The position numbers and the translations under genes are program-made. The notes under the pieces were generated by a model, which saw only the letters and a program-made list of their open reading frames with translations, was not told the origin of the DNA and ran no database searches. Positions 28,568-59,916 of a DNA stretch of 64,000 bases are shown one piece after another; position 1 is the stretch's first letter, and each line of letters begins with the position of its first letter. This stretch comes from a virus: the IMG/VR virus record IMGVR_UViG_3300042874_000422, positions 13,540-77,539 of that record, one strand, 5' to 3'.

Positions 28568-29359
28568 ATGCTGACCAACCGTCCTGCGCGTAACGCAGTC
28601 AGTTTCAATCCAGGCTTGCTGATCAACGCAGGGCTCGACGAGGGCGCCGCAGGGCACGTAGTCGCGTACGCCGCTGCAACCGCTGCTCCGACGACCGTCG
28701 TCCGCGCGACAGCATACGTCGAGCCTGCCGCAGCCGCGCAGCTCGAAGTCGTGTCGAGCAACGCCAACGACGATGGCGCCCCGGCAGGTACCGGAACGCG
28801 GACTGTTCGTATCGTCTACTACGATGGCAGTTGCAACGGTCCGTTCACGACGGATGTCGTGATGAACGGTGTGACGGCTGTGCCGACGACACCGACGGAC
28901 CTACGCTTCATCGAAAGCATCTGCAGTCTCACCGTCGGCAGCAACGGGACCAACGTTGGGACGATCACCCTTCGTGGGCTCGGCGGCGGTGCACTGGTCG
29001 GGACGATCGCAGCAAGTGACGGTCGAACGTACTGGGGCCACCACTACATTGCGACGGGCCGCATCGGGCAAATCCTCGACGTGAACGGCGCGTTCACGCT
29101 CGCCAAAGGATCGCTCTTTCTACGATCGATCGATGTCCTGACCGCCAACGCTTTCGAGCTGCAAATCACGCCGCAGCTTCGACTCACCCCCGGCGCGGTT
29201 GGTGCGGCAGCGAACCCTGCACCGTTTCAGCCAACGTTGGTGTTCCCGTTCGGGGGCTTGTACGTCGCCGGCCCCGCGCGCGTGACTGCATACGTAGACC
29301 CGGACACAGCCGTCGCGAACAATGTCGCGTTCGTGGGGTTCAGCTACCTTGATGTTTGA
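28568..29359 (+). CDS. paralogous receptor-binding-like domain protein
   Basis: NANDD...GTGTRTVRIVYY...MNG...FIE...WGHHYI...GPAR. Confidence 0.65.
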   Translation: MLTNRPARNAVSFNPGLLINAGLDEGAAGHVVAYAAATAAPTTVVRATAYVEPAAAAQLEVVSSNANDDGAPAGTGTRTVRIVYYDGSCNGPFTTDVVMNGVTAVPTTPTDLRFIESICSLTVGSNGTNVGTITLRGLGGGALVGTIAASDGRTYWGHHYIATGRIGQILDVNGAFTLAKGSLFLRSIDVLTANAFELQITPQLRLTPGAVGAAANPAPFQPTLVFPFGGLYVAGPARVTAYVDPDTAVANNVAFVGFSYLDV

Positions 29360-37598: not shown

Positions 37599-38588
37599 CT
37601 AATCTTCGGCGACGATCGTCCACGCGCCGCCGGCGGGGCCGACGTTGCCGTTGGTGATGTGGACCGAGAGATAGTCCGCACACGGGTTGGTGAGCTGAAC
37701 GTTGACGGGAACGTCTGCGGGGGCGGCGAGCTGTTCGAACGCCTTGACCTCGAAGACAGGCGTGAACGAACCAACTGGATGCTCGTTGATGTTGCGAATG
37801 AGGCCAACGCGGTAATCAACGATCTGCGCCGGAATACCGTCGAAATTGTGCGAGAGGAGCGAGATGCCGATGCTCTTACGTCCGTAGATCGGAATCATCG
37901 CGAAGTAACCCGAGTTACCAGCGCCGAGCCCCCAAAGCCCCTCGCGCGCCATCGCAGCACGCTTGGTGGGTGGCGAGAACGCGGGCAGCTTGGCGTAGAA
38001 CTGGAGATGTAAAAACGGCGCTTCTGTCGGCGTGAACGCACCCGTTACGCCGAACATGTTCGTGAACTGCTGACCTGCGTAGTAGCCGGTCGTCGTTCCG
38101 AACTGACCGCCGTGCCCATTCGCACCGACACCCTGGGCCAGATCGTTGTTGGACGGCTTGGGGCCCCACGGAAACACGTAGGCGGTCCCGGCCTGCATCG
38201 CGTCCCACCACGACTGGTTCGCGGTGCCCAGCGTGGGCTCCTTCTGCGTCGCTTGCGAGAACAGCAGCGGCGCTTCGCGCGTGATGATGCGCGGGAGACT
38301 GACGACCAGCTCGGGGAGCATGACATCAGCCGGCGGGATGTTGAGCGTCTTCAGCCGATCCCACGTGTACCAGCAACGATCGATCGTGCTGCGCGGGCCG
38401 ATCGCGACCGCCGCCACCGACGACGGCACTGGACGGCTGCCGGGCGGTGGCCACTGCAGGTTGATCTCGGGTGTGACAGCGCCCGGCGTATCTGACCGAA
38501 CGCCCCAGTCCGTGAATTCAAGCTCGAAGACGTCGTTGCTACGCGCGAGCGCGTCTTCGAACGGGAAGCTGTGCAGGGATTGAGGCAT
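37599..38588 (-). CDS. putative virion structural protein
   Basis: Beta-rich; same string as the capsid candidates. Confidence 0.55.
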   Translation of the reverse strand: MPQSLHSFPFEDALARSNDVFELEFTDWGVRSDTPGAVTPEINLQWPPPGSRPVPSSVAAVAIGPRSTIDRCWYTWDRLKTLNIPPADVMLPELVVSLPRIITREAPLLFSQATQKEPTLGTANQSWWDAMQAGTAYVFPWGPKPSNNDLAQGVGANGHGGQFGTTTGYYAGQQFTNMFGVTGAFTPTEAPFLHLQFYAKLPAFSPPTKRAAMAREGLWGLGAGNSGYFAMIPIYGRKSIGISLLSHNFDGIPAQIVDYRVGLIRNINEHPVGSFTPVFEVKAFEQLAAPADVPVNVQLTNPCADYLSVHITNGNVGPAGGAWTIVAED

Positions 38589-41520: not shown

Positions 41521-42231
41521 TTAGACAACGCTCCTCTTGATGAGGCCGTAGAGGTACGTCTTGACGTCCGCGAACGTCAGAGCCGCACCGTTGTCAGCAG
41601 CCGCCTGGCTGATGACGATCGGCGCCTCGGGCTGGAACGACATCTTGAAGCCGAGGTTCTCGCGGAGGTCGATCGGCAGGACCATCGCGTTGCGATCACG
41701 GGGCGACGGGACGCCGTTCTGCGCCAGCTCGAATGAGCTGGTCGTGGCGAACACGTAGTAGCCGTGACCCTGCGGGTAGTCCTGCATCACGCCGTACGTG
41801 TAGACCTTCCCGTTGTACGAGAATTCCAGGTACGTCACGCGATCGAACTGGAACAGCGTGTTGAGGATCGGCGGGGCCGAGAGCGCGCCCGAGCCGTCCG
41901 CGAGGACAGGCTGCGTCGGGTTCGCCGTCGGGCCGCGCATGACGCGGACCATCTTCACGCCGATGCCGTACACGTACATCTCCCACGACTGCGGCAGACC
42001 GGAGTCGCCGTTACGGGGGACGTTGGTGTCGACGCGCGTCGAGGCGCGCGTGCCGCCCGGGATGGGCTGCGAGCGGCCAGCCGTGAACGCCTCGACCGGC
42101 GAGGTCTGGGTGTTCGTGATCTGGACGGTGCTGTAGAGCTTGTCGTCGATCCAGTCGCTGATCGCGACCGTCTGCCCGTTGGGCAGGGTGAGGGTCGTGG
42201 TTCCGGGTGCTACGCCAACAGTTCCAGCCAT
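41521..42231 (-). CDS. candidate major capsid protein, single-jelly-roll type
   Basis: LYST, DTN.....LP....VYGI, NGVPSP.....LPI.L.....F...F, C-terminal VK.YL.GL..R.V; RBS AGGAG, own terminator, strongly biased codons. Fold inferred. Confidence 0.65.
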   Translation of the reverse strand: MAGTVGVAPGTTTLTLPNGQTVAISDWIDDKLYSTVQITNTQTSPVEAFTAGRSQPIPGGTRASTRVDTNVPRNGDSGLPQSWEMYVYGIGVKMVRVMRGPTANPTQPVLADGSGALSAPPILNTLFQFDRVTYLEFSYNGKVYTYGVMQDYPQGHGYYVFATTSSFELAQNGVPSPRDRNAMVLPIDLRENLGFKMSFQPEAPIVISQAAADNGAALTFADVKTYLYGLIKRSVV

Positions 42232-42438: not shown

Positions 42439-43131
42439 CTAGCGGCTGCCGCCGAGCAAGGTCGCGCCGTACGCAGCCGACAGACCGTGGATCTGCGGAC
42501 CGCCGAGGAGCGAGACCTGGCTCGACCGCGAGCTGGGCTGGCCGAGCAAGCTCACGGGAGCCGAGCGACCGAGTGACGTACCGGCGAAGCCGGGACCCGC
42601 AACGCCCGGGATCGTGCCGACCGACTGCGGCTGTGGCGCGATCGACGGGATGCCAAGGCCATTCAGGTAATTCATCTTCGGGATGCCGAGACCGTTCAGG
42701 TACGTCCCATCAGCCTGACGACGCATACCGAGGCCGTTGAGCGCGTTCACCTGCGCGATACCGAGGCCGGCCATCGCGCCCGGCTCCTTCTCGACGGCGG
42801 TCTGCACGGCGGCACTCGCCACCGCGACCGGGAACAGGAGCTTCTCGATGTACGAGAGGCCCGCTGCGAGGAACGAACCAACGACGGAGCCGAGCGCCAT
42901 CGGGCGCGTCGAGCGCATCGCTGCGAGGAGACCGGAGGTGCCGAGGCCCGCGAGCAGGCCGTACAGCTCGCGGTTCTTCGCGTTCTTGCCGCCCTGGACG
43001 TGAGCGAGCGCCATCGACGTCACGCCTGCGACGCCACCGCCGATGAGCGTGCCGTAAAAGCTCAGCGGACCAGCGCTGAGACCGAGGCCGAGCAGGTTGA
43101 CTTCTCCGAGTAGCTTCGCGCGACGGGCCAT
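42439..43131 (-). CDS. major membrane protein candidate (3 TM) with LNGLG repeats
   Basis: Three hydrophobic helices; MAGLG and three LNGLG; directly upstream of the capsid gene. Confidence 0.65.
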   Translation of the reverse strand: MARRAKLLGEVNLLGLGLSAGPLSFYGTLIGGGVAGVTSMALAHVQGGKNAKNRELYGLLAGLGTSGLLAAMRSTRPMALGSVVGSFLAAGLSYIEKLLFPVAVASAAVQTAVEKEPGAMAGLGIAQVNALNGLGMRRQADGTYLNGLGIPKMNYLNGLGIPSIAPQPQSVGTIPGVAGPGFAGTSLGRSAPVSLLGQPSSRSSQVSLLGGPQIHGLSAAYGATLLGGSR

Positions 43132-43145
43132 TGACGTTCTCCTTG

Positions 43146-43328
43146 TTATCGAGTCGGGTTGGAGCAGCTACCGGTGAACACCAGCCCGCTGCGATGCTTC
43201 TTGCTCTTGGGGACTCTGCAGATCTCGACGCCGCGCTTCGTTCGCTTGTTGAACACGCAGCGACAGTCGGTGCGCTGAACCGGACGTTCCCCGACGCCGG
43301 CCAACGTCATGACGTGATTCTTCGCCAC
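43146..43328 (-). CDS. small basic Cys-containing protein
   Basis: GTG overlapping the upstream TAG; LAGVG then a K/R-rich segment. Confidence 0.5.
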   Translation of the reverse strand: MAKNHVMTLAGVGERPVQRTDCRCVFNKRTKRGVEICRVPKSKKHRSGLVFTGSCSNPTR

Positions 43329-43813
43329 TAACCGTTCCACCAACGGTTGGTCCACTGGTGCCAGCTCGTCTCGGCCTGCGAGCGAGCGTAAGCGTTCGGC
43401 AGACCACCACCCTTGAGGAGATGGGCGACCATCTGCTCCTTGGCGATCATCTGCGGCGCGATCTCCTCGCCGACCTGCGGGTAGCCCGCGCCCCAGCCGG
43501 GCTGGATCATGCCGCCGGCGCCGATCGCGTGCATCCGCTCCATCGGAAGCGCCTGGAGGACCTGCTTCTTCGCCTGCTTCTTCGCGCGCCACGCGGCGAA
43601 TTGCAGACGAATGCGATCGATGACGCCGACACCGCGAAGACCGCCGAGACCGTTGGTCTGGAGATCCATCGGGTACTGCGTGAACGACGCCGCCACCGAC
43701 TGGACGTCGGCATTCGGGTCGTAGCCGATCGCCGGCTGGAGGACGCTCGTGCGGTAGACCCTATCGGGCCTGACGTAGTGCGAGGTGCCCCCATGCCGCG
43801 TGATGATCTGCAT
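43328..43813 (-). CDS. putative virion protein with a GLGGLRGVG motif
   Basis: In the capsid gene string. Confidence 0.6.
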   Translation of the reverse strand: MQIITRHGGTSHYVRPDRVYRTSVLQPAIGYDPNADVQSVAASFTQYPMDLQTNGLGGLRGVGVIDRIRLQFAAWRAKKQAKKQVLQALPMERMHAIGAGGMIQPGWGAGYPQVGEEIAPQMIAKEQMVAHLLKGGGLPNAYARSQAETSWHQWTNRWWNG

Positions 43814-43879
43814 GGTTCATGTGTACCGACGTAGACGTAACTAAGCAATATTGTTAAAGAACTTAGAACAGCAGATCAC

Positions 43880-44515
43880 ATGAGGCTTCATAACACCCTG
43901 AAAGATCGTTCCAAGCGCCCGCGCTTGATCAATTCTTTGATCTGTCGTTCGGAAGGTGCGACAGAACGTAGACACGTGCGAACCGTGTATTTCCTGTCGA
44001 ACAGCGATCTCTCGCGCGTGAAGATCGGCAAAGCGACACGAACTTCGACACGGGTTCGCGCCGTTCAGGCTGGGTCTGCCGAGCAACTCTTACTCGTGGC
44101 CGAGGTCGACGGCTACACACACGTCGAACGCTGGTTTCACGATCGCTTCGCGACACGCCGAATCCACAACGAGTGGTTCGTAGTCGACGACGAGCTTGGA
44201 AAAACAATCGCAGAGATCCAGCGCGCAGGGCGCGGCGCGAGCAGACATCTTTGCCCTGATGCTTTTGCGAAAGATCTGCCGCCACAGATCAACGCGCACA
44301 CGAAACTGACACCCGAGATCGTCGAAGAAGCACGCTGTCGCTACGATCGCGGAGAATCGATCACGGCGCTGATTCACCGCTTCTCGGCGATCAAGCCGCT
44401 CGATCTCAGTCGGGCGGTGTTCGGGCTCACCTGGCAACAACTGGCGCCGACGACGCGAAAACCACCTGACGATCTGCGTCGGTTGCTTCAGGGCAAGTAT
44501 CGTAGAGTCTCGTAG
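43880..44515 (+). CDS. T5orf172/MUG113 (GIY-YIG-like) domain protein
   Basis: VYF.....VKIG......R...Q.GS...L......ER.FH.RF...RI..EWF. Confidence 0.8.
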   Translation: MRLHNTLKDRSKRPRLINSLICRSEGATERRHVRTVYFLSNSDLSRVKIGKATRTSTRVRAVQAGSAEQLLLVAEVDGYTHVERWFHDRFATRRIHNEWFVVDDELGKTIAEIQRAGRGASRHLCPDAFAKDLPPQINAHTKLTPEIVEEARCRYDRGESITALIHRFSAIKPLDLSRAVFGLTWQQLAPTTRKPPDDLRRLLQGKYRRVS

Positions 44516-44517
44516 CC

Positions 44518-45054
44518 ATGATGATCCTCAATCCGACGACCGCTGCTGCCGTGGTGCTGCACGCGAGCGATGGGGTGTGGATCATGTTCCTGCAGTCGAC
44601 GGCGCCCTGTGATCCGTACGGCCCAATCATGATCGAGAGCACGATGCGGGAACGGCTCGCGGCTCGTTTGACAGATCTCAACGAGGACAACGCCTACGGT
44701 CTCCGATTGATCGGTCTGATGCCGGTGAACGACCCCAAGAATGTCGACACCGTCTTGGAGGCGTTCGACGCCTACCGGCTGCACGATGCGTGGTTCGCAC
44801 CGAACGCCGAGCTTTTGGCGTTCATCGCCGAGAACGCCCAAGACGCGATCTCGTTGCTCCTGGCGCAAACGCGGCCCGGCGCGCTCCCTGACGCACCGAT
44901 CATGATCAACGAAATGGCTGACATCCTCGGGGTCTCGGTACCGACGGTGCGGCGCATGATCAAGCTGGAGGAGATCCCGTTCCTGAAGTTCGGCCGAGTC
45001 TACCGTTTCATCGCCGCCGATGTTCTCGCGAGCCTAGAACGACGCCAGCGGTAA
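44518..45054 (+). CDS. degenerate T5orf172-like domain plus excisionase-type HTH
   Basis: F..YRL..AWF; INEMADILGVSVPTVRRMIK...IP..KFGR..RF. Confidence 0.7.
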   Translation: MMILNPTTAAAVVLHASDGVWIMFLQSTAPCDPYGPIMIESTMRERLAARLTDLNEDNAYGLRLIGLMPVNDPKNVDTVLEAFDAYRLHDAWFAPNAELLAFIAENAQDAISLLLAQTRPGALPDAPIMINEMADILGVSVPTVRRMIKLEEIPFLKFGRVYRFIAADVLASLERRQR

Positions 45055-45080
45055 CCGCACTGCCGCGCTGCCGGATCCTA

Positions 45081-45353
45081 CTACTTCAGAATCGCCGCGA
45101 GCCCGCCGAGAACGCCGAGACCGAGCGCGGCCACGGTGCCGACGACAATCCACTTGCGATTCTTCCACCACCATGAATCGAACATCGCGTTAGCGGCGTC
45201 GATCGGGGCGTCCATTGTACCGCCGAGGTAAGGGCCGACCGGCTGCGCCGTCGACTGCGTCATGCCCGGCGGGAACCGCATGTCGGTGACCTGCGGATTC
45301 ATCGCGGGATCCATGTTGAACTGCCACGCTGGGATGAACCCGAGGTTGTTCAT
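45081..45353 (-). CDS. small virion membrane protein (C-terminal TM)
   Basis: YLGG; terminal hydrophobic helix. Confidence 0.6.
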   Translation of the reverse strand: MNNLGFIPAWQFNMDPAMNPQVTDMRFPPGMTQSTAQPVGPYLGGTMDAPIDAANAMFDSWWWKNRKWIVVGTVAALGLGVLGGLAAILK

Positions 45354-45367
45354 GGCGTCAGCTTACA

Positions 45368-45682
45368 TCACTTCGGTTTCGCGAAGCCGGGCTTGCGAGC
45401 GATGGCCACGATCGGCGTGAACACCGGGAAGAGCCCACCCATGAGGAACCACCACACACCCCAGCCAATGCTGCCGTGGTTGCGCTTGATCCCGTGGTAA
45501 CCACTCGCGCCTGCTGACGCGAGCGCAAGGAGCCCCCAGATCGTGTTCTTTGTGATCTTCGACGAGTCGACGATCGGCGGTGCGTCGGTGACGACAGGTT
45601 CAGCACTGAGGTGACCGAGCCCGTTCAGCCCGTACAGCCCATGTACACCGGTCATCCCGCGCAACGCTTGCAGATTCAACAT
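45368..45682 (-). CDS. small virion membrane protein with LxG repeats
   Basis: LRGMTGVHGLYGLNGLG then 2 TM. Confidence 0.65.
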   Translation of the reverse strand: MLNLQALRGMTGVHGLYGLNGLGHLSAEPVVTDAPPIVDSSKITKNTIWGLLALASAGASGYHGIKRNHGSIGWGVWWFLMGGLFPVFTPIVAIARKPGFAKPK

Positions 45683-45700
45683 GCGTCGATGATGCCGCTG

Positions 45701-46393
45701 CTACGCGGGGAAGTCGAGAGCCTCGGCGTAAGGGACCTCGACCGCGTACTTGTTGCGGCCGGGTAGCGTCGTGTCGAGCGCGACCCACTTCGACGGGCCG
45801 TTCTTCGGCAACCCTGCGAGCGGGAAGATGTGCGACCAGTCGTCGCTCTTGCTCTCTTTCATCACGCGAAGGCGCGGCGTGATGCCATTGAGCGCGAGCA
45901 AGGTCGCGATCAGCACGCTCTGGTCGTCGCAATCACCGCCGCCGAATTCCAGCGTGCGCCGCGCGCTCTGATAAAGGTCGATACCCTCGACGTCGCCGTT
46001 CGGGAACTTGATCGGCGCGACATCGCCCGTGTACCGGACGTTGTCCTTGACGAAGTTGTACACCGCACGCGCCTCGCACTCACCATCGCGCTCGGGGCAC
46101 TGCGACGTGATCTTGAGTGCGAGCTTGCGCATCTCCGGATCTTGCACCGACTTGTGGACGAGTTTCTGGATCGACGCGAGGCGCTCTTCGATCGGCATTC
46201 CTTCGCTGGCGCGAAGCGTCGTTCGCATGTTGCCGTCGGAGTAGCCGTCGATCGCCGGCGCCTCTTCGTACCGCTTCGACATGAAACGTACACGTCCGAG
46301 GCTCGCCGTCTTGCGCTGACGGTAAATGAAGTACCCGCCAAGGAGAGCGACACCGAGACCAACGAGGCCCCATTGCTTGCGTGACAGCGCCAT
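45701..46393 (-). CDS. TM-anchored transglutaminase-like (papain-fold) cysteine enzyme
   Basis: VYNFVK.NVRY..D, GDCDD (Cys), WSHIF (His), VALDTT (Asp). Confidence 0.85.
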   Translation of the reverse strand: MALSRKQWGLVGLGVALLGGYFIYRQRKTASLGRVRFMSKRYEEAPAIDGYSDGNMRTTLRASEGMPIEERLASIQKLVHKSVQDPEMRKLALKITSQCPERDGECEARAVYNFVKDNVRYTGDVAPIKFPNGDVEGIDLYQSARRTLEFGGGDCDDQSVLIATLLALNGITPRLRVMKESKSDDWSHIFPLAGLPKNGPSKWVALDTTLPGRNKYAVEVPYAEALDFPA

Positions 46394-46432
46394 TGGTCCT
46401 GACGGTATCACGCTCTATGTTAGGCTCGCGAT

Positions 46433-46831
46433 ATGCTCCAGTTCTCCCCTCTTGGCTCCGTGTCCGATGACTACGTGGATTGCTTGGCCGAGGGTGGAGA
46501 TGCGGACGTCTGCCGAGAGCTGCATCCGCCGACACCTGGCGCGCCCACGACCTCGCCGATCATGACGGCGGAAGAACAGCAGATCGCTTCGAGCCATGCG
46601 TGCGACGTCTGCGACCCGAACACGCAGTGGTGTGACGGCACGACGTGTATCCCGTTTACCGTCGAAGAACAGGCTAAGTGGGCTGCTGTCGGAAAGCCGC
46701 CCGAGCAGATCGTCGTTCGGGCGAGCCCGACCCGATCGCTCATCCCCGGTGTTTCCAACACGACGCTCGCGATCGGCGCGGCCTTGCTCGGGCTGGGTGT
46801 CATCGCCTACAAGCGCACGCGCCGAGCGTGA
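46433..46831 (+). CDS. Cys-rich virion membrane protein (C-terminal TM plus basic tail)
   Basis: CDP.TQW...CIPF module also present in the next gene. Confidence 0.6.
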   Translation: MLQFSPLGSVSDDYVDCLAEGGDADVCRELHPPTPGAPTTSPIMTAEEQQIASSHACDVCDPNTQWCDGTTCIPFTVEEQAKWAAVGKPPEQIVVRASPTRSLIPGVSNTTLAIGAALLGLGVIAYKRTRRA

Positions 46832-46862
46832 TAGCCTACGTTCCAAGGAAGGTGAAGAAGAC

Positions 46863-47225
46863 ATGATTACGATGAACGGACTCGGAGCAGGCGGCGATAA
46901 CTGCGACCCAGCAACGTCGTGGTACCAGTCCGACCCGAACATGGCGTACTACGGGAGCTGCATCCCGTTCGCCGGCCTTCCCGGCTCAAGCTCGACCGGC
47001 CCCGCGCCGACGACGCAGACGACGGCAGCGTCTCCGTGGTGGGGCTCGCTCCTCACCAGCCTCACGTCGGGCGTGGTCAAGGGCATCGTCGGCAACGACG
47101 GTCAGCCCGCGACTCCGACGATGCCGCCGCCCAGGATGCCGCCCACGCCGTGGTACGCAACGCCGACCGGCATGATCGGCATCGGTGTCGGTGCGGTCGC
47201 GCTGATCTTCCTGCTGAGGAAGTAA
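46863..47225 (+). CDS. virion membrane protein
   Basis: MITMNGLG; CDP..SW...CIPF; TM then RK. Confidence 0.65.
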   Translation: MITMNGLGAGGDNCDPATSWYQSDPNMAYYGSCIPFAGLPGSSSTGPAPTTQTTAASPWWGSLLTSLTSGVVKGIVGNDGQPATPTMPPPRMPPTPWYATPTGMIGIGVGAVALIFLLRK

Positions 47226-47479
47226 TGCTGGCGGTCTCACCAGCAAAGCAACCGCTCGCCGGGATTCTCGATAACTTCATCGACTCAGTCACCGGTAGAG
47301 CCGTCTCCAGCGCGACCACCGCCGCACAACCGCTGCTCGACGACGTCGAGCGACGAGTCAAGGCGCTCATTCTGCCTGTGGTCTTCTTCACCGCCGGTAG
47401 CTTCTTGATCGGGCTACTCACGTACCGCGAAGTGGCCAAGCGATCGAAACCGGTCGCGGGACTCCGAGGGCGCCGATGA
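47225..47479 (+). CDS. small membrane protein
   Basis: LAG; TM; VAGLRGRR. Confidence 0.55.
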   Translation: MLAVSPAKQPLAGILDNFIDSVTGRAVSSATTAAQPLLDDVERRVKALILPVVFFTAGSFLIGLLTYREVAKRSKPVAGLRGRR

Positions 47480-47775
47480 TTCTCCTGAACCCGAACGTTG
47501 GCGTTGCGCCAGGCACCACGACCATGCAGCTCGGCGAAGCGTGCGCGCCGGATCCGATCGAGCCCGAGTCGCCGTTCACGCAGATGGTCACGACGTACGC
47601 GCCGTCGTCGACGACACTCGACACCGGCGTGGAGCTGTGGATCCCGTACCAAGACACCGTTCGCTTACGTGGGCTCGGTGAGATTGCGCCGCCGCGCTGG
47701 GGGCTCGTGCTGCTCGCCGGACTCACCGCGTTCGGCATCGTGCTCGGATTGCGACGTTGGCGCGCCAAGCGTTGA
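47476..47775 (+). CDS. small membrane protein
   Basis: LRGLG; TM; RRWRAKR. Confidence 0.6.
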   Translation: MILLNPNVGVAPGTTTMQLGEACAPDPIEPESPFTQMVTTYAPSSTTLDTGVELWIPYQDTVRLRGLGEIAPPRWGLVLLAGLTAFGIVLGLRRWRAKR

Positions 47776-47793
47776 GCGTGATACCGTAGCCGC

Positions 47794-48237
47794 ATGCTCG
47801 GTTTCATTCCCGCGCCGATGGGCCAGAAGGTCCCCGGGCAGTACCCGAATCAGATCCAGTACAGCTACGGCGGCGACGGTCACTACCTCTGTCCCCCGGA
47901 TCCGCGGTTCAACCAGCACGGCGAGATCGGGATGTACTACGACACGCCGCTCGGTGGCCCACAGATCCCGACGGACGCAGAGCTGGCGACCGTCTACGGC
48001 CGGACACCGGTCGCGAGCGCGTGGATCACCGCCAAGGAAGGCTACTTCCCGTCGCCGTGGCGACCGCCGGGCGGCTGGAACCCCGCTGGCGCATGGGGCC
48101 CGCAGCCGAGCTTGGGCGCTGCGCCCATGATCTTCTACAAGTTCGGCATGTCGCCGCTACTGTGGGGGCTCGTCGCGGGCGCGGGCGGGCTCCTCTGGTG
48201 GATGACGCACAAGACCAAGCCGCGTCGGAGGCGTTAG
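47794..48237 (+). CDS. Pro/Gly-rich membrane protein
   Basis: SLG; TM; KTKPRRRR. Confidence 0.6.
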   Translation: MLGFIPAPMGQKVPGQYPNQIQYSYGGDGHYLCPPDPRFNQHGEIGMYYDTPLGGPQIPTDAELATVYGRTPVASAWITAKEGYFPSPWRPPGGWNPAGAWGPQPSLGAAPMIFYKFGMSPLLWGLVAGAGGLLWWMTHKTKPRRRR

Positions 48238-48477
48238 ATGCTGACGCTCGGGCTCGGTGATCCCGTCGATCTGACGTTGCCAGAAACGGCGACGGCGACC
48301 GAGACACAGGCTGTGATCGCCGCGCTCAACGCGCACAACGATCGTGTTTTCAAGGTCACGCTGATCTCGACGATCGTTGTCGGGCTCGCAGCGGCGCTCA
48401 ACACGCTGCGCACGTTCCGCACCCTTCAGCGCGAGGAAGCGCGCGAGATGGCTCTCTTAAAAAGGCTCAAGAAATAA
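48238..48477 (+). CDS. small membrane protein
   Basis: MLTLGLGD; single TM. Confidence 0.6.
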   Translation: MLTLGLGDPVDLTLPETATATETQAVIAALNAHNDRVFKVTLISTIVVGLAAALNTLRTFRTLQREEAREMALLKRLKK

Positions 48478-48791
48478 TGGCGAAGCAAGCGGCTCTCCCG
48501 ACGTACCGCACTGCCGCTCGCGTTCTTGAGGGCGAAAAGGGTTCGGGCATTCGCCTCGCCGGCTGGACAGTCGCCCGCACGCTCATGATCGCACCGCCGA
48601 TGATGATCGTCGGTGTTCCGATCCGGCAGGCGTTCACAGGCGCGGCGCTCTCGTCAGCGCTGATCAGTCTGTTCACGGTGATCCGCCTCTTCGATGCACG
48701 GCAGACCGGCATGGCCGGGCTCGACTATGGCAAGCAGATGGCCGGGCTCACTCGTCGACGGCCGGTTCGCCGGCGCTCTTACGCAAGGTAA
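48477..48791 (+). CDS. small membrane protein
   Basis: 2 TM; MAGL twice; Arg-rich tail. Confidence 0.6.
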   Translation: MAKQAALPTYRTAARVLEGEKGSGIRLAGWTVARTLMIAPPMMIVGVPIRQAFTGAALSSALISLFTVIRLFDARQTGMAGLDYGKQMAGLTRRRPVRRRSYAR

Positions 48792-49035
48792 GAATCAGCG
48801 GGATCGACGGCCAGATCACGCCGAACACGATCGACGAGCCCGTGATCAGGAGCAGCTCTTGGATGTCGAGCGGTTCGTCGATCACGTGACGCCGGGCCGC
48901 TTCGTAGAGCAGCACGACACTGGTCATCGTCACAAGGATCGCGACGGCGACGTACGTTGGCCCGACGAATACCGCGACAGCGCCCGAGATGAACAGCGCG
49001 AAGACAATCTGACCAAGTGCGGTGAGGAACTGCAC
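48748..49035 (-). CDS. 3-TM membrane protein
   Basis: Hydrophobic throughout. Confidence 0.5.
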   Translation of the reverse strand: MQFLTALGQIVFALFISGAVAVFVGPTYVAVAILVTMTSVVLLYEAARRHVIDEPLDIQELLLITGSSIVFGVIWPSIPLILTLRKSAGEPAVDE

Positions 49036-49075
49036 CCCCTCTATCTACACGAGGGGTACGTCATCGCGCGAAATT

Positions 49076-51163
49076 TCACGCTCGCGCGCGCCCGTTCGCG
49101 GGCTTGGCGGGCTTGACAGGCGGCTGAACCTCGACTGCGTTGTCGTCACCGGTCTCGTCACCTTCGTCTTCCTCGTCCTCATCTTCGTCGTCATCGGTGT
49201 TGCCCGACAGCTCGTTGAGAACGATCTGTGCGGCCTCGTCGCGGAACTGCTGCGAAGCATCCGGCAGGAGGACGTCCATGAAGTCGGCGACACGACCCTG
49301 ACCGAGCAGCTCGGTCATCGCGAGGATTTGGATCTGCTGCTGCATCACGATCATCGCGGCCTGCAAGATCACACTCGCCGCCTGTTCTGGCTCGACACCG
49401 TCGACGGTGCTGTCCTTCTTGAGACGCGGCGGCGACATCTTCAGCGACTCGTGGAAATGCGCGACACCGACACGAAGCTCTTCGACCTTCGGCAGAATCG
49501 GACCGAACCATTCAAGATCGGTGCGCCCATGGATACGCCTGACCTGTGCGCCCTCGACGACAGCGGGAACCGGGCCCGTCGTCCATTGTGCGTTCGGATC
49601 CTTGCCGTTGCCGTTCGAGGCTCGCACCGACGACGTCTGCGAGACTTGCGTGTCACCGGCGGGGCCCGCGCTCGCGGGAACCTGTGGGCCGTTCAGACCG
49701 CCAGCTTGCTGACGCGCCTGCATCTGCGCCTGCACCGTCATCGCCTGCGCCTGTGCCTGCATCGCGGCGGCGTTCGCCTGCGCGAGTGACGCCTGCGATT
49801 GCTGTGTCGCTACGGCTTCCTTGGTCTTGCCGCCGAGATACCGCTCGGCCATCGACGACGCGCGCTCCAGTCCCTTCTCGATCAGCTGGATGGTCTCGCT
49901 ACCACCGCCGCTGTTGAGCTGCAGGATTTGCTCGACGGCGTTGCGCTGCATTTCGAGGATCGACTGGTACGTCGACGTGATCGAGCGCGTCGCCTGATCG
50001 AGCCCGTTGCTTGACTCCTTGGCCATCGCCATCACGTCGCGCGGGTTCATCATGTACGACTGCATCTGCGCCATCTGTGCGGTCTGGTTGCGGGCTTGCT
50101 CCTTCACCGCTTCGACCTGCTGGCGTGCGTTCTCCTGTAGGAACATCAGCATCGGGTCCGGGCCCTTGTTCGCTGACGCTGCGGCGAGCGCAGCGGTCTG
50201 TGCCGCAGCTTGCTGTTGTGCCACGACCGACGCCTGCATCGCTTCCATCTGGCGACGGCTCTCCTCGGCCTGACGCTGGATCATCTCCTTCATCTCGCGC
50301 TCGCGGCGTTCAGCTTCGCGCTCGCGGCGCTCATCGGCGGCTTGCTGCGCGAGCACGCGGTTCTGTTCCTTCAACGCCTCGATCGCGGGGTCGGTCGTCG
50401 GGCGCTGCGTCGCCGCCGTGGCGAGGGCCGCGATCATCTGCTCCAGCTTCGAGAACTTCTCGTTCTGGGCGTTCGCCTCGGCACGCATACGAGCCTCGGC
50501 GCGCTCCAGCTCCTGTCGGTGCTGCGCCTGCATCTGCTCCTCGCGGGCGCGCTGCAACTGCGCCTGCATCTCCTTGAGCTGCTCTTCCATGCGTCGACGG
50601 TCCGCGTCAGCCGCAGCGAGCGCGGCGCTGTTCGGGTCATAGCGGACGACCGGCTCACGCGGCGTGTACTGCGAGGCCGGCGGCTGCTGCACGTAGACCG
50701 TCTGCGGCTGACCGGGAACGTTGGCGGGGAGACCGTTGTGGAACGCGGAAGGGAAAGAACCCATAGGACGCACCTGCTGTGGCTGTGAGGGGGCGATCGG
50801 ACGATCGGGGGCGGCTGCTGCCGAGAGCGTCGGCGGAACCTTCTCGGGGTAATCTTGCGGGTTGTAGAAGATCGTCCAGTCGTGCTTCGCCGGCTGCGGC
50901 ATCGACGAATCGGTGACGGTGATGGCGTACATGCCGCCACCCGACCAATCCGTCACGAGCCACTGCTCCAGTCCCTTGACGTCTTCCTTCGACCAATTCG
51001 AGCCCTGCGATGACCCATCGTCACCGGCGGGCAGCGGGATCATCGTGCGGGCGTTGCCCTTCAGCTTCTCCACACGAACGGAGAGCGGTTCTGACATGGA
51101 CTCCAGCTTGGCTGGATCGAACACCTTGGCGCCGATGGGTTGCTTGCTCACGGCGTCCACCAT
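49076..51163 (-). CDS. large Gln/Ala-rich coiled-coil protein
   Basis: Globular N-terminus, Pro-rich linker, long helical middle, acidic tail. Confidence 0.75.
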   Translation of the reverse strand: MVDAVSKQPIGAKVFDPAKLESMSEPLSVRVEKLKGNARTMIPLPAGDDGSSQGSNWSKEDVKGLEQWLVTDWSGGGMYAITVTDSSMPQPAKHDWTIFYNPQDYPEKVPPTLSAAAAPDRPIAPSQPQQVRPMGSFPSAFHNGLPANVPGQPQTVYVQQPPASQYTPREPVVRYDPNSAALAAADADRRRMEEQLKEMQAQLQRAREEQMQAQHRQELERAEARMRAEANAQNEKFSKLEQMIAALATAATQRPTTDPAIEALKEQNRVLAQQAADERREREAERREREMKEMIQRQAEESRRQMEAMQASVVAQQQAAAQTAALAAASANKGPDPMLMFLQENARQQVEAVKEQARNQTAQMAQMQSYMMNPRDVMAMAKESSNGLDQATRSITSTYQSILEMQRNAVEQILQLNSGGGSETIQLIEKGLERASSMAERYLGGKTKEAVATQQSQASLAQANAAAMQAQAQAMTVQAQMQARQQAGGLNGPQVPASAGPAGDTQVSQTSSVRASNGNGKDPNAQWTTGPVPAVVEGAQVRRIHGRTDLEWFGPILPKVEELRVGVAHFHESLKMSPPRLKKDSTVDGVEPEQAASVILQAAMIVMQQQIQILAMTELLGQGRVADFMDVLLPDASQQFRDEAAQIVLNELSGNTDDDEDEDEEDEGDETGDDNAVEVQPPVKPAKPANGRARA

Positions 51164-51226
51164 AAGTCGTCTCAACGAGCCTAGCTAATATTTGCGAGCA
51201 GAAGATCGAAAGCCTATGTTGCCGGC

Positions 51227-51706
51227 ATGGGCCATTCGAACCTCAAGAAAGAGCTGAACACCCTCCTCGTTCCCAAAGAGCGAGTGATCTCGAAAGGTCA
51301 GGGCTGCTGGAACTGCAAGCACTGGGATCGCGAGATGGCCAAACCCCTGTGGACACAGAAACGCCAAGGGGATCTCACGACGGCGTTGAACCTCGCGCTC
51401 GATCTCCCCAAAGGCGAACCGACGACGATGCAGGAGGCAGTCGAGGCCGGACCGAACGGTGTTCGCTGCTTCAACATCAAGTCGATGGTCGACAGCCTCG
51501 ACCACCTGGTCGCCTCCGGTCACGTGGGCGTCTGTAAGGGCGGGGGCCGGAACGAGAAGGACGACCCCGTCGGTGACTTCGTCGTCCACTCGTTCCAGTG
51601 CGATCGATGGACCGGTGTGTCCGGCGCCTCGCTCGCGACCGGCGGCAAGAGCGACACGCTGCCGATGGAGCTGGCCGAGAAGATCGACAAGCCCAAGCCG
51701 AGCTGA
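51227..51706 (+). CDS. hypothetical Cys-containing protein
   Basis: CWNCKHW...GVC...CDRW. Confidence 0.6.
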   Translation: MGHSNLKKELNTLLVPKERVISKGQGCWNCKHWDREMAKPLWTQKRQGDLTTALNLALDLPKGEPTTMQEAVEAGPNGVRCFNIKSMVDSLDHLVASGHVGVCKGGGRNEKDDPVGDFVVHSFQCDRWTGVSGASLATGGKSDTLPMELAEKIDKPKPS

Positions 51707-51731
51707 CCCGTTTTACGGCTCGACGCCTTCT

Positions 51732-52247
51732 ATGTCGGGCTCCACCCAGAAACACGCGGAGAATCGACAGGCTCAAGAACTGATGCAGCTCGACGCCAAC
51801 AATCTCACAGAAAAACGTTGCACTAAGTGCAAACAGATTAAGGCGTTAGATCAGTTCTACGCGCAACCCAGAGGTCACTTAAAACGCGCGGCCCAGTGCA
51901 AGGCGTGCGACCGCACGTACTACAGCAAACGCTGGCGGGACAACAAAGACGCTCTGCGCCCCAAGCTCAACGCCTGGAAGAAAAACAACCCGGACAAAGT
52001 CCAAACCATAGCCCTCCGACGGTACGGGCTAACCAGCGCGTCCTACAAAGCCATGCTGAAGGCTCAAGGCGGCTTGTGCGGGCTCTGCGGCAAGCCGTTC
52101 GACAACACCCGTCTGGGGCGCCCGAACATTGATCACGACCACGATACCGGCGTCGTTCGTCAACTGATTCACGGGTCCTGCAACCTCGTGCTCGGCATGG
52201 CCAAAGAGGACGTCGAGGTACTACGTGGAGCCATCGACTACCTATAG
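51732..52247 (+). CDS. endonuclease VII-like HNH endonuclease
   Basis: KRCTKC, CKAC, RYGLT...Y..M...Q.G.C.LC, IDHDHDTG.VR.L....CN..LG. Confidence 0.85.
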   Translation: MSGSTQKHAENRQAQELMQLDANNLTEKRCTKCKQIKALDQFYAQPRGHLKRAAQCKACDRTYYSKRWRDNKDALRPKLNAWKKNNPDKVQTIALRRYGLTSASYKAMLKAQGGLCGLCGKPFDNTRLGRPNIDHDHDTGVVRQLIHGSCNLVLGMAKEDVEVLRGAIDYL

Positions 52248-52258
52248 AGGCACAAACG

Positions 52259-52594
52259 ATGATGGAAGTCCTGTTTGTCTACTCGTTGTTAACGTCGGCG
52301 CTGTTCTACCTTGGTAGCCGCGCCAAAATCACCCAAGTCTTGTGGTCGAAGTACCCGCCGTGGCTTGCGAGCTGGGCCGATTGTGCGGCTTGCTCAGGAG
52401 CCTGGTACGGCTTCGCTGTCGGACTCGTGGCCTCCAACAGCGGCGCAGACCTCCCCCGTATACTGACGCAGTGGTGGTCGCCCCTGATCGTCGGCCTGTG
52501 CTCGATCGTGTGGACCCCCATCGTCGCAGGCTTCATGCAGGCCGGGTTCGAACGGCTCGGCACCACGATCGCAGAAGACGATGCCCAGACCTAA
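52259..52594 (+). CDS. DUF1360-like membrane protein
   Basis: TM helices around CAACSGAW. Confidence 0.5.
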   Translation: MMEVLFVYSLLTSALFYLGSRAKITQVLWSKYPPWLASWADCAACSGAWYGFAVGLVASNSGADLPRILTQWWSPLIVGLCSIVWTPIVAGFMQAGFERLGTTIAEDDAQT

Positions 52595-52862
52595 CCGGTC
52601 GATGGCGCCGTACTTCGTGCAGATGCGGGAGCTGGAACGCAGGCTCTTGCGCAGCGCGTTGACACAAGCGCAAGAATCGGTCGGTTCTGTCACTACCAAG
52701 CCCGGGGATCTCATACACGTCGTCGCCGCGATGCTTGGCGTCAAGCCCGGCTACATCAAGGTGCGCGCGAAGGTGCTCGGCGGCGTACTCGACGATCAGC
52801 CTCTGGAACCACCACCCAAGATCGCGACCGAGGTCTGGGCAGAACAGGACAACAAATCGTGA
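52581..52862 (+). CDS. Fis-like HTH protein
   Basis: ELERRLLRSAL...AAMLGV. Confidence 0.5.
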   Translation: MPRPNRSMAPYFVQMRELERRLLRSALTQAQESVGSVTTKPGDLIHVVAAMLGVKPGYIKVRAKVLGGVLDDQPLEPPPKIATEVWAEQDNKS

Positions 52863-53134
52863 TGCGAAACCTGGTCGTTCAGGCTCTGCCGGCGGGCGCC
52901 GTGATGACAATCAACGTCGAGCCGCCGATGGCTGACGACGAACGGCCGATCCTCCTCCCGTTTCGAGGCAGCGGGACCGTTGTCGTACGTGTGATCCATA
53001 ATGCCTGCCTCGAAATCGAAAACACGACATCCGAAATCGCGCCGTTCGCGATCTGCGTCGGGAAACCGCCACAGCTGCCCCCACAGGTGCAAGTGCTGGC
53101 GAACCTGCTCATTCACACGTTGAGGAACCGCTGA
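52859..53134 (+). CDS. hypothetical protein
   Basis: Coupled ORF. Confidence 0.5.
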   Translation: MMRNLVVQALPAGAVMTINVEPPMADDERPILLPFRGSGTVVVRVIHNACLEIENTTSEIAPFAICVGKPPQLPPQVQVLANLLIHTLRNR

Positions 53135-53610
53135 TGCAATCTGCCACGCTGACCCTGACTCTCGCCGACTACGACGCGCTCAAAAACGCCCGCACGACGG
53201 CCGAGAACGAAGCTGCCGATCTCCGACGACAACTCAAAGAGGCGCGCACGGCCGACCCGCTCGGCAAGCTGACCGACCTCAACAAGTTCACGCGCGACTG
53301 CATGACGGTCGCTCGCTTCGCCGTCGCGAATCTTCCGCCCGAGACGATTCGCGGCTGGCCGTACGAGGCGCTGCAGAACCTCGCGCACAACATCCACGTG
53401 CTGCCGGACTTCTCGACGAACGATCGCGACATGGCGCTCGATTTGCTCGCGTTCGCGCGCGACGCCGAGGAGCTGGAGAAGCGTCGTAAGGCGACCGCGA
53501 TGGTGCCGACGAAGTTCACCGCTGAAGAGCTGGAAGAGCGTCGACGTCGACTAGAACAGGATCCGATCGCACAAGGATTGATCGCCAAGATGCAGGGCAC
53601 GAACGTTTAG
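53134..53610 (+). CDS. helical hypothetical protein
   Basis: Coupled ORF with typical codon bias. Confidence 0.6.
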   Translation: MQSATLTLTLADYDALKNARTTAENEAADLRRQLKEARTADPLGKLTDLNKFTRDCMTVARFAVANLPPETIRGWPYEALQNLAHNIHVLPDFSTNDRDMALDLLAFARDAEELEKRRKATAMVPTKFTAEELEERRRRLEQDPIAQGLIAKMQGTNV

Positions 53611-53749
53611 TTGCTCGCGATCTCTGTCGTGTGGTAACTCCGAGATCAGGATCGTCGTCCGTCTCGACCCGGACCGATCCAAGGCACCCTCGACACACTC
53701 GCCCCCGAGAGTTGAGGGTGCCCAACCGCTTTCTGATACGATGATCGCC

Positions 53750-54106
53750 ATGATCATCCGTGTCGCGTACGACGGCCCACCGTACTCGTACGAACCGAAA
53801 GAGCAGCCGATGCTGGGCTGCGGTTCGTGTAACAAGCCGCTCGGGCTCGTTCGCGAGGGTCTCCGTGGACTCGGACGTAGCGCACCGCCAGTGGTGAACC
53901 CAGGTGATGGGGGCTTCGATCCGGTGAGGGATGATCCGGCTGTCAAAGACTATTACGAGCAGCAAACGGCTGCAGCCTCAGCCTCAATAGCGGCCGGCTC
54001 GATGCCGATCCACATGATGCAGAAAGTGCAGCCTGTTGTGAAATATTGGCCGTACATCTTCGCAGCTGGCGCGATCGGGCTCTACTTCATCGTCAGGAAG
54101 AAGTGA
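53750..54106 (+). CDS. virion membrane protein
   Basis: MLG, PLG, GLRGLG; C-terminal TM then RKK. Confidence 0.6.
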   Translation: MIIRVAYDGPPYSYEPKEQPMLGCGSCNKPLGLVREGLRGLGRSAPPVVNPGDGGFDPVRDDPAVKDYYEQQTAAASASIAAGSMPIHMMQKVQPVVKYWPYIFAAGAIGLYFIVRKK

Positions 54107-54312
54107 TGCTGACGCTCAGCGACGCGGTCCCACCGCAGGATCCGACCACCGCTGACGCGCCGATCGTCAAGCCACCAGCTATCGAGATGGTGAAGATCAA
54201 GGCGCTGTCAACGTGGAACGCGCTCACGATCGGCGTGATCACCGGGTTCGCGCTCAGCCTCGGCACGTTCATCTTCGAGAGCGCACGCGATAAGATTCGC
54301 GCTCGTCGCTAG
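54106..54312 (+). CDS. small membrane protein
   Basis: MLTLSD (compare MLTLGLGD at 48238); TM. Confidence 0.55.
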   Translation: MLTLSDAVPPQDPTTADAPIVKPPAIEMVKIKALSTWNALTIGVITGFALSLGTFIFESARDKIRARR

Positions 54313-54926
54313 TACACCTGCTTCTGCGGCTTCCGTCGATTCTCCCACTCTTCCTTGGCGATCTCCTGGCCAGCCCTCTCTCTGACCTGCTGAACGCTCA
54401 AGGTGTCTTGGTGCTCGTCGGCGATTCGCTTGAGTCGGATCGCGTACTCGCCGTACGGGAGCTTGTGCTTCTGGTAGTGGAGGTAGCGCGCCCACGCCGC
54501 TTCTTCGGCGGCTGGGAAGAAACCGATCACCATCTCCTCGTTCAAGAGGGGATTGCGCCCCACGGCGCGGAATCGCTTCTTGCCGTTCGTTCCGCCGGTC
54601 ACGTAGATGCCGACGAACCCGCTCGCCAGGTCATCGCTCCGGTGCAGCTTTGAGAGGTCGATCTGATCGATGAGCTGTTGATGCGCGTTCAAAAACTCGG
54701 GGCCGAACACGTCTAGGTCCCCAGTTTTCACCATGTGATCGATCTTCCGGAAGAACCACCGGAGGACCCATCGGGGTGTCGTATCCATGTCCGAGGCCAG
54801 CTGGAAGAACAGCTGCCAAACAGCGGGAGGTATCGCAATCCTCGTTTGCCTGAAGCCGGAATCGTCCAAATCCGAGGGCTCGGTGGTTTCTGGATCCGGC
54901 TGATCTGTAGTGCTTTTGGCAATCAT
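54309..54926 (-). CDS. AP2-domain DNA-binding protein
   Basis: SGFVGIY...KRFRA...IGFF.AAEEAA.A; RHH-like N-terminal part; no HNH motif seen. Confidence 0.6.
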   Translation of the reverse strand: MIAKSTTDQPDPETTEPSDLDDSGFRQTRIAIPPAVWQLFFQLASDMDTTPRWVLRWFFRKIDHMVKTGDLDVFGPEFLNAHQQLIDQIDLSKLHRSDDLASGFVGIYVTGGTNGKKRFRAVGRNPLLNEEMVIGFFPAAEEAAWARYLHYQKHKLPYGEYAIRLKRIADEHQDTLSVQQVRERAGQEIAKEEWENRRKPQKQVY

Positions 54927-54929
54927 CCC

Positions 54930-55200
54930 CGGCCATCTAAACGAATTTCGACCAAAACGTCCATCTCATTTTCCGGAAAACCCTCAAATCCGACCCTCCC
55001 CTGTCGAGCAACTTGATACACGGGATGTATCACCAAATCGCAAGTATCTGTATATATAGGCTTCTATAAAACCGTAGTAGTAAAGAGTGTGTTTGGGAAA
55101 GTCCGTAGGATTTTTCGAGATTTCGAAATAGAAAACGAAAGCTCGAAGGATAATTACAAAGACTACTAACCCCATTTTTGCCTCCGAGCGATGTTGATAC
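54930..55200. promoter_or_regulatory. AT-rich non-coding region (candidate origin or control region)
   Basis: Sharp GC drop; inverted repeat TGATACA-CGGGA-TGTATCA at 55014-55032. Confidence 0.5.
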
Positions 55201-55255
55201 ACCGCCAGAACGAGGACGCAGCTATCCCGACAGGTTGAGCCGGCTTCGGTGAGCC

Positions 55256-56038
55256 CTACTCGGACTTGCGGCTGAGCGGCTTGATCGCGCGGAGTGCCGG
55301 GAAGCGATCCTTGATCGCCTCGCGATGCCGCCAGGCGTAGCGCCCGCCGAAGAACAGGATCGCCCCTCCGATGAGGAGGGGAGCGTGCGTCGACACCCAA
55401 CCGAGGAGGTCGAAGCTCTTCTTCGCGATGGTCACCACGGCTTTGCCGGCCTGGTAGGTCGCATTCACGACGTCCTCTGCGACACCTGCGATATTGCGCA
55501 GAATCTCGTAGGCGTCGCTGACCAGGTTGATCACGATGAGCGCCATCTGCGACCACCAGGGTCGAATGCAGCTGACGACGTACGAGTCGCCAATCGCGTC
55601 AGAAGCGGCCCCCAGCGCGTCCATCGCCCATTCCTTGAAGCCGTCGGCGAAGACGTAGGCGGTCTTGAACGCAGCGGCAGCGGAGGTCTCAGCGCTGTCT
55701 GCGGCGTCGAGGTAGTTCTTGGACTGGTTGGTCACGCGCAGGAGCGCCCGGTAGCGGTCCATCCCCGTCGGGAACGAGCAGCCCGGAGCGACCGCGCAGT
55801 CGGTCTGAGCCTTCGCCAACACGTCGAACGCCTGCGAGAGCACAGCTTGCACCGACGCCACGCCGCGCCGGATCGACTCGGGCTCAAAGTAGTTCGTCGG
55901 GTGCCAGTCCCTGCCGAGCGCGTACCGGCGCTCGTCGATCGGCGACGTCAGCTCGTTCGCCTTGTTGATGCACCGGATCGTGTCGTCCTCGCCCGCGCCG
56001 ATCGGCACCAGCGAGTCAAAGAAGCCGTTAAGCGCCAT
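55256..56038 (-). CDS. virion membrane protein
   Basis: MALNGFFD start; C-terminal TM. Confidence 0.6.
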   Translation of the reverse strand: MALNGFFDSLVPIGAGEDDTIRCINKANELTSPIDERRYALGRDWHPTNYFEPESIRRGVASVQAVLSQAFDVLAKAQTDCAVAPGCSFPTGMDRYRALLRVTNQSKNYLDAADSAETSAAAAFKTAYVFADGFKEWAMDALGAASDAIGDSYVVSCIRPWWSQMALIVINLVSDAYEILRNIAGVAEDVVNATYQAGKAVVTIAKKSFDLLGWVSTHAPLLIGGAILFFGGRYAWRHREAIKDRFPALRAIKPLSRKSE

Positions 56039-56408: not shown

Positions 56409-56597
56409 TTAATCGCGCAGCGGCTCCTTCTGGGGTGGCGCCGGTGGCGGGTCCCATGCAGATTCAACGTCCTCGTCGACGACGGCGTTCACGAGAGCGT
56501 CGACGGTCGCGAGCAAATCGTCGATCACCGGCATCAGCCGCTCCATCACCTTGTCGGCGACACGCTCAGCGAGAGCATCGATCTCGGCTTCGGTCAT
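56409..56597 (-). CDS. small acidic hypothetical protein
   Basis: MTEAEIDALAERVA; RBS GGAG. Confidence 0.45.
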   Translation of the reverse strand: MTEAEIDALAERVADKVMERLMPVIDDLLATVDALVNAVVDEDVESAWDPPPAPPQKEPLRD

Positions 56598-56776
56598 TTC
56601 TTCTCCGGGTGTTTGCAGTTGGAGCCGTGCCCGAAGGAGATTGAGCAATGCGCTCGCCACACCGCGTGCGCGAGGCAGACGTCGACGCATCCGCGCCCGT
56701 CGTGCGTCGTGAATACAACCGGGCCCTCGCACTTCGGTGAAACAGAATCGACGTACGCGCACTTCACTTATCAACC

Positions 56777-57349: not shown

Positions 57350-57377
57350 TCCAGCGTGGTAACACGCGGGTCCGACG

Positions 57378-59902: not shown

Positions 59903-59916
59903 GAGGAGCCCGCGAA

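Follow-up and report, generated by a model that had tools for sequence, protein, structure and literature searches.

We analysed a 64,000-nucleotide stretch of viral DNA (positions 13,540 to 77,539 of IMG/VR record IMGVR_UViG_3300042874_000422; hereafter the window), whose late genes encode a membrane-anchored enzyme of the transglutaminase fold and, around it, small proteins that share a short Leu/Gly motif. The window covers 64 kb of a contig of 77,539 bp, which has a terminal overlap and is probably a complete genome; 136 genes were called with a codon-usage model. The early/replication part encodes a family A DNA polymerase fused to uracil-DNA glycosylase, an SNF2 helicase, a PD-(D/E)XK nuclease, ThyX, a dCMP deaminase and rIIA/rIIB. 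The late block, which is the rest of the genome, encodes mainly small proteins, almost none of which belongs to a Pfam or PHROG family and many of which have one transmembrane helix with a basic tail after it. Among the matches listed for the genome there is no terminase, portal or tail family, and the virus is likely tailless. An earlier reading by a model that saw only the sequence (the original prediction) had proposed that the motifs are processing or cross-linking sites of the enzyme, in a bacterial-virus counterpart of adenoviral maturation. The enzyme, the motif-bearing (carrier) genes and the capsid candidate used to find relatives are the following:

45701..46393, minus strand: membrane-anchored transglutaminase-fold Cys-His-Asp enzyme, candidate protease (Pfam PF01841).
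41521..42231, minus strand: putative major capsid protein, conserved more strongly than any other late protein (15 contigs, 60-80% identity).
42439..43131, minus strand: membrane protein with six motif copies (MAGLG, three LNGLG, LLGLG, LAGLG).
43146..43328, minus strand: 60-residue Cys/Lys/Arg-rich protein with LAGVG; its N-terminal leader, (I/V)MTL(S/A)GxG, is conserved in an alignment of 11 sequences.
43328..43813, minus strand: soluble 161-residue protein with NGLGGLRGVG within a variable linker.
45081..45353, minus strand: tail-anchored protein; a leader of variable length ending in LG, then a conserved (F/L/M)IPxWQF.
45368..45682, minus strand: small membrane protein with LYGLNGLG near its N-terminus.
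46863..47225, plus strand: tail-anchored protein starting MITMNGLG; the L002 ortholog starts MMFLGLSGLG.
47476..47775, plus strand: tail-anchored protein with LRGLG nine residues ahead of its transmembrane helix.
47794..48237, plus strand: protein starting MLG-FIP; orthologs have LRGLG-xIPTD and are fused to the module of the next gene.
48238..48477, plus strand: module starting MLTLGLGD (loose match), in relatives the C-terminal part of the 47794 ortholog.
48477..48791, plus strand: membrane protein with a loose motif, G(M/L)xG(L), ahead of an Arg-rich tail; MAGL occurs twice.
53741..54106, plus strand: tail-anchored protein (start at 53741 or 53750) with LRGLG at residue 41.
55256..56038, minus strand: 260-residue tail-anchored protein starting MALNG, a weak partial match.
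37599..38588, minus strand: late protein outside the range of the original prediction, with LWGLG.
28568..29359, plus strand: late protein outside that range, with LRGLG, which is kept in L017.

Every motif that the original prediction had listed is present in the gene named for it, those at 48238, 48477 and 55256 as loose matches; two small basic proteins encoded upstream of the window have LRGLG and LAGLG. With the motif defined strictly as [LM]xG[LV]G, we found 20 matches in 15 proteins, against 2.60 expected from within-protein shuffles (0 of 1000 reached 20). Local shuffles in windows of 30, 20 and 12 residues, the last of which preserve local Gly/Leu richness, gave 3.0-3.6 expected matches (3.6 at 12 residues), and none of 400 reached the observed count. 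As a guard against cherry-picking, every pattern of four residues, with or without a single gap, was ranked across the proteome: L.GLG came first of 74,640 (11 proteins vs 1.15 expected, P=4e-8), followed by GL.GL, which overlaps it. All 20 strict matches lie in the late block (1.85 expected), whereas the 46 replication/early proteins have none (0.64 expected) and contain no GLG tripeptide (3.3 expected). Codons vary between copies, so the motif acts at the protein level and not as a DNA repeat. Altogether, the enrichment over Gly/Leu background on which the original prediction depends is borne out, and the late block alone bears this motif, which is under selection at the protein level; that its carriers are particle proteins we infer from gene position. 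A looser test, for LG within 14 residues of the N-terminus, scored 14 of 90 late proteins and 0 of 46 early ones, with ~9 expected from the rate elsewhere in late proteins; being only modestly above that rate, it carries little weight. The third-ranked pattern of the scan, MSTN, is explained by three paralogous small proteins that start MSTNAG(Q/N)LLWNR (window 19911-20297, 20816-21196 and 37108-37485, all on the minus strand).

The motif and the enzyme are also found together in related genomes. At least 15 IMG/VR contigs, of 39-221 kb, carry the capsid candidate, and the enzyme gene lies near it, adjacent to motif-bearing genes, in 16 of 16 related loci. We counted 59 motif copies, against 13.2 expected, in the structural loci (20 kb each) of 14 relatives; GLG is two- to four-fold enriched in nearly all of these loci, and a more distant, GFG-rich clade (L010, L011, L016 and L017) uses GFG too. 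When orthologs were aligned, motif columns were 0.72-1.00 identical within linkers whose flanks were 0.12-0.50 identical. In the protein at 42439..43131, whose C-terminal tail carries MAGLG and three LNGLG(I/M)P units, the figures in 12 orthologs were 0.72-0.86 for the motif and 0.12-0.50 for the flanks. The motif of 47476..47775 is likewise retained in both of its orthologs, with flanks 24-35% identical.

The original prediction had placed the motif near N-termini or between modules, and the ortholog alignments resolve these positions into leader ends and gene split/fusion junctions. At junctions, 47794 and 48238 form a single gene in L004, L005, L008 and L012, joined via LSGLREG or LSGYGLGE, and in L006 the anchor module of 45368 is fused to a 45081-type head via GLNGLG. 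At leader ends, leaders of variable length stop at the motif, before conserved starts, and some orthologs begin exactly there. The leaders MNNLG, MRFARTSLG and MMIARNSAKPAGIAGLG thus differ in length and sequence, each being followed by (F/L/M)IPxWQF, and MLG and MSHLGLG are each followed by (I/F)(I/V). In L012, the 43328 ortholog is extended by MHQVTLLGLG, a leader placed ahead of the conserved start at which the other orthologs begin. Orthologs of 45081..45353 also have G(L/V)xGLG ahead of the anchor. Judged from the alignments, this placement looks like the anatomy typical of cleavage sites.

Many late proteins share a further N-terminal feature, a start of the form ML(T/Q)(F/L), as in MLQFSPLG, MLTFTALG, MLQFSLKG, MLTLGLG and MLGFIP. 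Such starters are found at window 46433, 47225, 47794, 48238 and 54106 (plus strand), at 45368-45682 (minus strand, from the ATG at 45682), and, also on the minus strand, at L019:12355-13050 and G000:C1:13063-14340 (window 1-801). A leader common to these N-termini could explain them, as could a constraint imposed by leaderless translation starts.

The enzyme at 45701..46393 comprises an N-terminal transmembrane helix, a basic patch (RQRK), a tether with TASLG and a catalytic domain. The domain scores 29.8 bits with PF01841 (Transglut_core, papain-like clan), above the curated cut-off of 23, at E=7.5e-7 and over profile positions 3-107 of 108. The intact triad that had been claimed is there: C155, H188 and D207, in GDCDD, SHIF and ALDTT, are invariant in 15 aligned orthologs, as is the Cys pair C99 and C106. 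Around the catalytic Cys, the GFG-rich clade has EDCDG in place of GDCDD. The SLG noted after the membrane anchor is present too, as a weak local form of a conserved LxGLG found in the tether of most orthologs, where G33 is invariant and L32 nearly so. An AlphaFold2 model of the enzyme (pLDDT 84.3, pTM 0.78) gave Foldseek probabilities of 1.00 to 3isr and 3kd4 (transglutaminase-like putative proteases), 4xz7 (a bacterial transglutaminase), PNGase, LapG and CPR-C4, with TM-scores of just 0.3-0.4; TG2/TG3 were neighbours too, and weak matches were obtained to the phage pseudomurein endoisopeptidases PeiP (E=4e-3) and PeiW (E=4e-3). A profile of the enzyme had no match among PDB sequences, and Pfam found no peptidoglycan-binding domain in it. 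The protein is therefore a genuine transglutaminase-fold protein with an intact, conserved triad, although the fold alone cannot tell a protease from a wall endopeptidase or a cross-linker.

In one relative, the enzyme ortholog is 557 residues long (L009:3617-5287, plus strand) and contains an intein of ~330 residues with LAGLIDADG-like motifs directly before the catalytic Cys (borders ...GGGD/CLPISAL...VLVHN/CDDH...). Inteins usually occupy such sites in proteins that a virus cannot lose. With the enzyme profile, at least 700 homologs were retrieved; contigs of 75-100 kb carry many of them. One close homolog (86% identity) has an NCBI label that assigns it to a Tepidisphaeraceae (Planctomycetota) metagenome bin, a possible hint about the host and no more.

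By Pfam, the transglutaminase-fold enzyme is the sole conserved peptidase-like protein that we found. No other peptidase family was detected in the late block by Pfam, and adenain (PF00770) had no match anywhere in the genome at E<=1. The M23 protein was rejected as the protease acting on the motif because it is absent from the complete relatives G003 and G004, which have both motif and enzyme. Among cultured viruses, SSIP-1 alone has a homolog of the enzyme: gp34 (24% identity, blastp 2e-14; Foldseek E=3e-9), likewise a membrane-anchored transglutaminase-fold protein, distant in sequence and annotated as structural. SSIP-1 is a tailless, membrane-containing phage (PMC6356626). Unlike the enzyme described here, gp34 has its anchor at the C-terminus, and the SSIP-1 proteome lacks [LM]xG[LV]G.

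If an active protease cuts at the motif, proteins that need to stay intact should avoid it. We therefore pooled the early proteins of this genome with the syntenic replication modules of five relatives, 27,604 residues in all (window 803-16455 and 56409-63856; L019:1-5707; L020-L022 and L025-L030); rIIA, present in one of five relatives, was of no use for locating their early arms. Across the replication proteins of these six genomes, GLG occurs 4 times against 12.2 expected (P about 0.007) and G[LF]G 7 times against 16.8, while the control tripeptides GGL, LGG, LGL, GAG, GVG and GIG are at expectation. The depletion of GLG thus runs in the direction predicted by a cleavage site.

Several replication genes of the relatives have much longer frames than their counterparts here. 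The DNA polymerase reaches 1628 and 2012 residues vs 982, with its match split into blocks, the SNF2 helicase 869 vs 520, the 58298-type protein 870 vs 522 and the PD-(D/E)XK nuclease 791 vs 342 (overlong frames at G001:C1:18031-22782, G005:C1:8323-14241, L029:221-2833, L029:3520-6129 and L030:2649-5024). These overlong frames and the split polymerase match suggest several more inteins in this virus group.

We propose, tentatively and at somewhat less than an even chance, that the transglutaminase-fold enzyme cuts the motif, which would then be a processing tag, during particle assembly or maturation. The tag would have a hydrophobic-Gly core and the full form (G)-L-x-G-L-G, and its sites would be the ends of short N-terminal leaders, flexible linkers between modules and positions just outside membrane anchors. 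The membrane-anchored enzyme would be packaged or co-assembled with the tagged late proteins and would act as a papain-type endopeptidase, stripping leaders, parting modules and releasing itself from its own tether. We prefer a cut after the last Gly, because this would unite the internal LxGLG with the N-terminal leaders ending in LG and would put Leu in P2. Papain-fold enzymes typically read P2 and favour Leu there. Such a maturation system is favoured because it is the simplest cover for the junctions, the leaders, the enzyme's tether, the late-only distribution and the avoidance. The central claim of the original prediction thus survives in part: a selected, late-only motif and a conserved, intact enzyme are observed, while the cleavage and the link between the two remain our conjecture.

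Several observations weigh against this proposal. The enzyme of SSIP-1 occurs without a single [LM]xG[LV]G. In the enzyme, the catalytic domain follows the transmembrane helix and the basic RQRK, whereas many tags precede a transmembrane helix and a basic tail; if basic flanks mark one face of the membrane, a simple charge-based topology would set the enzyme and those tags on opposite faces. Both the tag retained at the start of the split gene 48238 and the four to six copies in 42439 would be explained at least equally well by a binding tag. The P-values of the avoidance test are too optimistic, orthologous replication proteins not being independent, and among the fold neighbours are PNGase, a phage pseudomurein endoisopeptidase and true transglutaminases. 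When residues 40-230 of the enzyme were co-folded with the motif-rich 42439 tail (residues 110-180), no answer was obtained (score 0.00), which counts neither for nor against.

Proteolytic maturation is known in tailed phages, in herpesviruses and in eukaryotic jelly-roll viruses (adenovirus, virophages and giant viruses). In adenovirus, the protease adenain (AVP) cuts at (M/I/L)XGX↓G and (M/I/L)XGG↓X. Its substrate pVI, for instance, is cut at IVGL↓G (PMC4246237). The tag LxGLG is identical in form to the type-1 site of AVP, and in both systems the sites are carried by many unrelated particle or core precursors (putative ones in this virus), often near the termini, with small basic proteins among the carriers. 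A short site shared by several unrelated putative particle precursors is also what this virus has in common with other maturation proteases that follow a site code, T4 gp21, African swine fever virus pS273R and poxvirus I7. The enzymes, however, are not homologous: adenain is a C5 peptidase of clan CE that slides on DNA, whereas the protein described here is membrane-anchored, has the transglutaminase fold and belongs to a virus of a bacterium, where cleavage is inferred. The adenoviral counterpart that had been suggested therefore holds for the form of the site, as an analogy, and not for the protease. Closer in fold class and in Cys-His-Asp chemistry are LapG, other BTLCP proteins and CPR-C4, which are cellular, not viral, and structurally similar to it only weakly (Foldseek TM 0.32-0.40). 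LapG is a protease with sequence specificity, its cleavage site being made of small residues.

The alternative that fares best, and our main rival, is that the tag is never cut. It would then serve for docking or loading, or as a conserved hinge, and by binding one common partner (the inner capsid face or an assembly factor, for example) would recruit unrelated proteins into the particle. The enzyme would have a different task, most likely to cleave the peptidoglycan cross-links of the host during entry, acting from the virion membrane. There are precedents for short shared peptides that mark unrelated proteins for the capsid interior, namely the capsid-targeting sequences of T4, which are removed by the prohead protease gp21 and in part stay uncleaved, and the cargo-loading peptides of encapsulins, although their sequences, enzyme class and capsid lineage are all unlike those found here. 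A docking role would suit the repeated copies in the 42439 tail, which look multivalent, the tag kept by 48238, the several tags just outside membrane anchors, the topology mismatch and the SSIP-1 enzyme that occurs without the extended motif; a wall-cutting role would suit the likeness to PeiP/PeiW. It accounts less well for a tag that is conserved in the enzyme's own tether, for leaders of variable length that end at the tag with some orthologs starting right after it, and for the depletion of GLG in replication proteins. Moreover, the genome already encodes a GH25 protein, an M23 protein with a peptidoglycan-binding domain and an SLT-like wall enzyme. On balance we consider this alternative unlikely, though it deserves to be taken seriously.

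That the tag is cut by another protease, either of the host or a viral protein unseen by profiles, with the transglutaminase-fold protein as a mere substrate, appears improbable. The enzyme itself carries the tag, a further protease could hide among late proteins of which most have no detectable family, and the topology mismatch would be relieved. Yet no additional peptidase family or adenain was detected, M23 is not conserved, and it is the transglutaminase-fold enzyme that stands as the one conserved catalytic protein beside the tagged genes in all 16 loci.

Still less probable is a true transglutaminase or sortase-like transpeptidase, which would form an acyl-enzyme at the tag and join it to a capsid Lys or a lipid head group, stapling membrane proteins to the shell. 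The fold family does include real cross-linkers (4xz7, TG2/TG3), and several tagged proteins show the order motif, transmembrane helix, basic tail that is seen in sorting signals. However, many of the tags are found in soluble proteins or at the very N-terminus, no acceptor is indicated by the data, and the tag contains neither Gln nor Lys, which also makes the cross-linking entertained by the original prediction unlikely. Finally, a motif that is a mere by-product of Gly/Leu composition, paralogy or a DNA-level repeat is hardly credible: a few matches do lie in or beside transmembrane helices (LLGLG, LVGLG) and three copies belong to one repeat-bearing protein, but the 12-residue shuffles rule out composition and the differing codons a DNA repeat, the 15 carriers share no detectable similarity, and the motif is kept across orthologs that have diverged by 40-60%.

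Returning to the proposed maturation protease, the fuller picture would be that of a widespread and so far undescribed group of large bacterial viruses, probably tailless and membrane-containing, in which a membrane-tethered enzyme, homologous to no known viral maturation protease, frees itself and cuts Leu-x-Gly-Leu-Gly on dozens of proteins, convergently with the adenovirus code, while the non-structural proteome avoids the site. This picture as a whole is possible, though we hold it with more reserve. The question is relevant because, in a published scheme of gene sharing, capsid proteins, ATPase and polymerase are common to tectiviruses and polintoviruses, and the protease joins only in the eukaryotic lineage (PMC4405056). 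A full-text search of the literature returned no paper that describes a virion protease or maturation protease of the transglutaminase fold in a phage. If the proposal is true, particle maturation by cleavage arose independently in a group of bacterial viruses, with a non-homologous protease and an adenovirus-like site code; a simple sequence rule would predict mature virion proteins in hundreds of metagenomic genomes; and transglutaminase-fold enzymes would gain a new specificity class. To the original prediction, the present analysis adds the unbiased pattern ranking, the split/fusion junctions, the presence or absence of leaders, the intein found directly before the catalytic Cys, the rejection of M23 and the avoidance test.

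The capsid candidate at 41521-42231 was modelled as an all-beta protein at low confidence (pLDDT 49.7), from which no fold can be assigned. A second putative capsid protein is encoded at 38945-39475. Its profile had no match in PDB and none to SSIP-1 gp45, and no relatives of it were found in GenBank phages; in the ESM Atlas there is a weak lead to PRD1 P3. We found no link between this virus and the Methylomirabilis bioreactor phage (PMC5099504).

Amid many small, basic, Cys-paired proteins of the late block, window 35906-36262 (minus strand) encodes a thioredoxin-like protein with a CGAC motif, which may be part of a virus-encoded disulfide system; PF13098 appears in the genome-wide Pfam list and may stem from this gene. 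Upstream of the window, L019:10380-10907 (minus strand, genome coordinates) encodes a protein of 175 residues that starts with a transmembrane helix and has, in its C-terminal part, an EncFtn-like (encapsulated ferritin) domain (PF22277, E=7.8e-10). Such a domain is unusual for a virus, EncFtn-like proteins being normally loaded into a protein shell.

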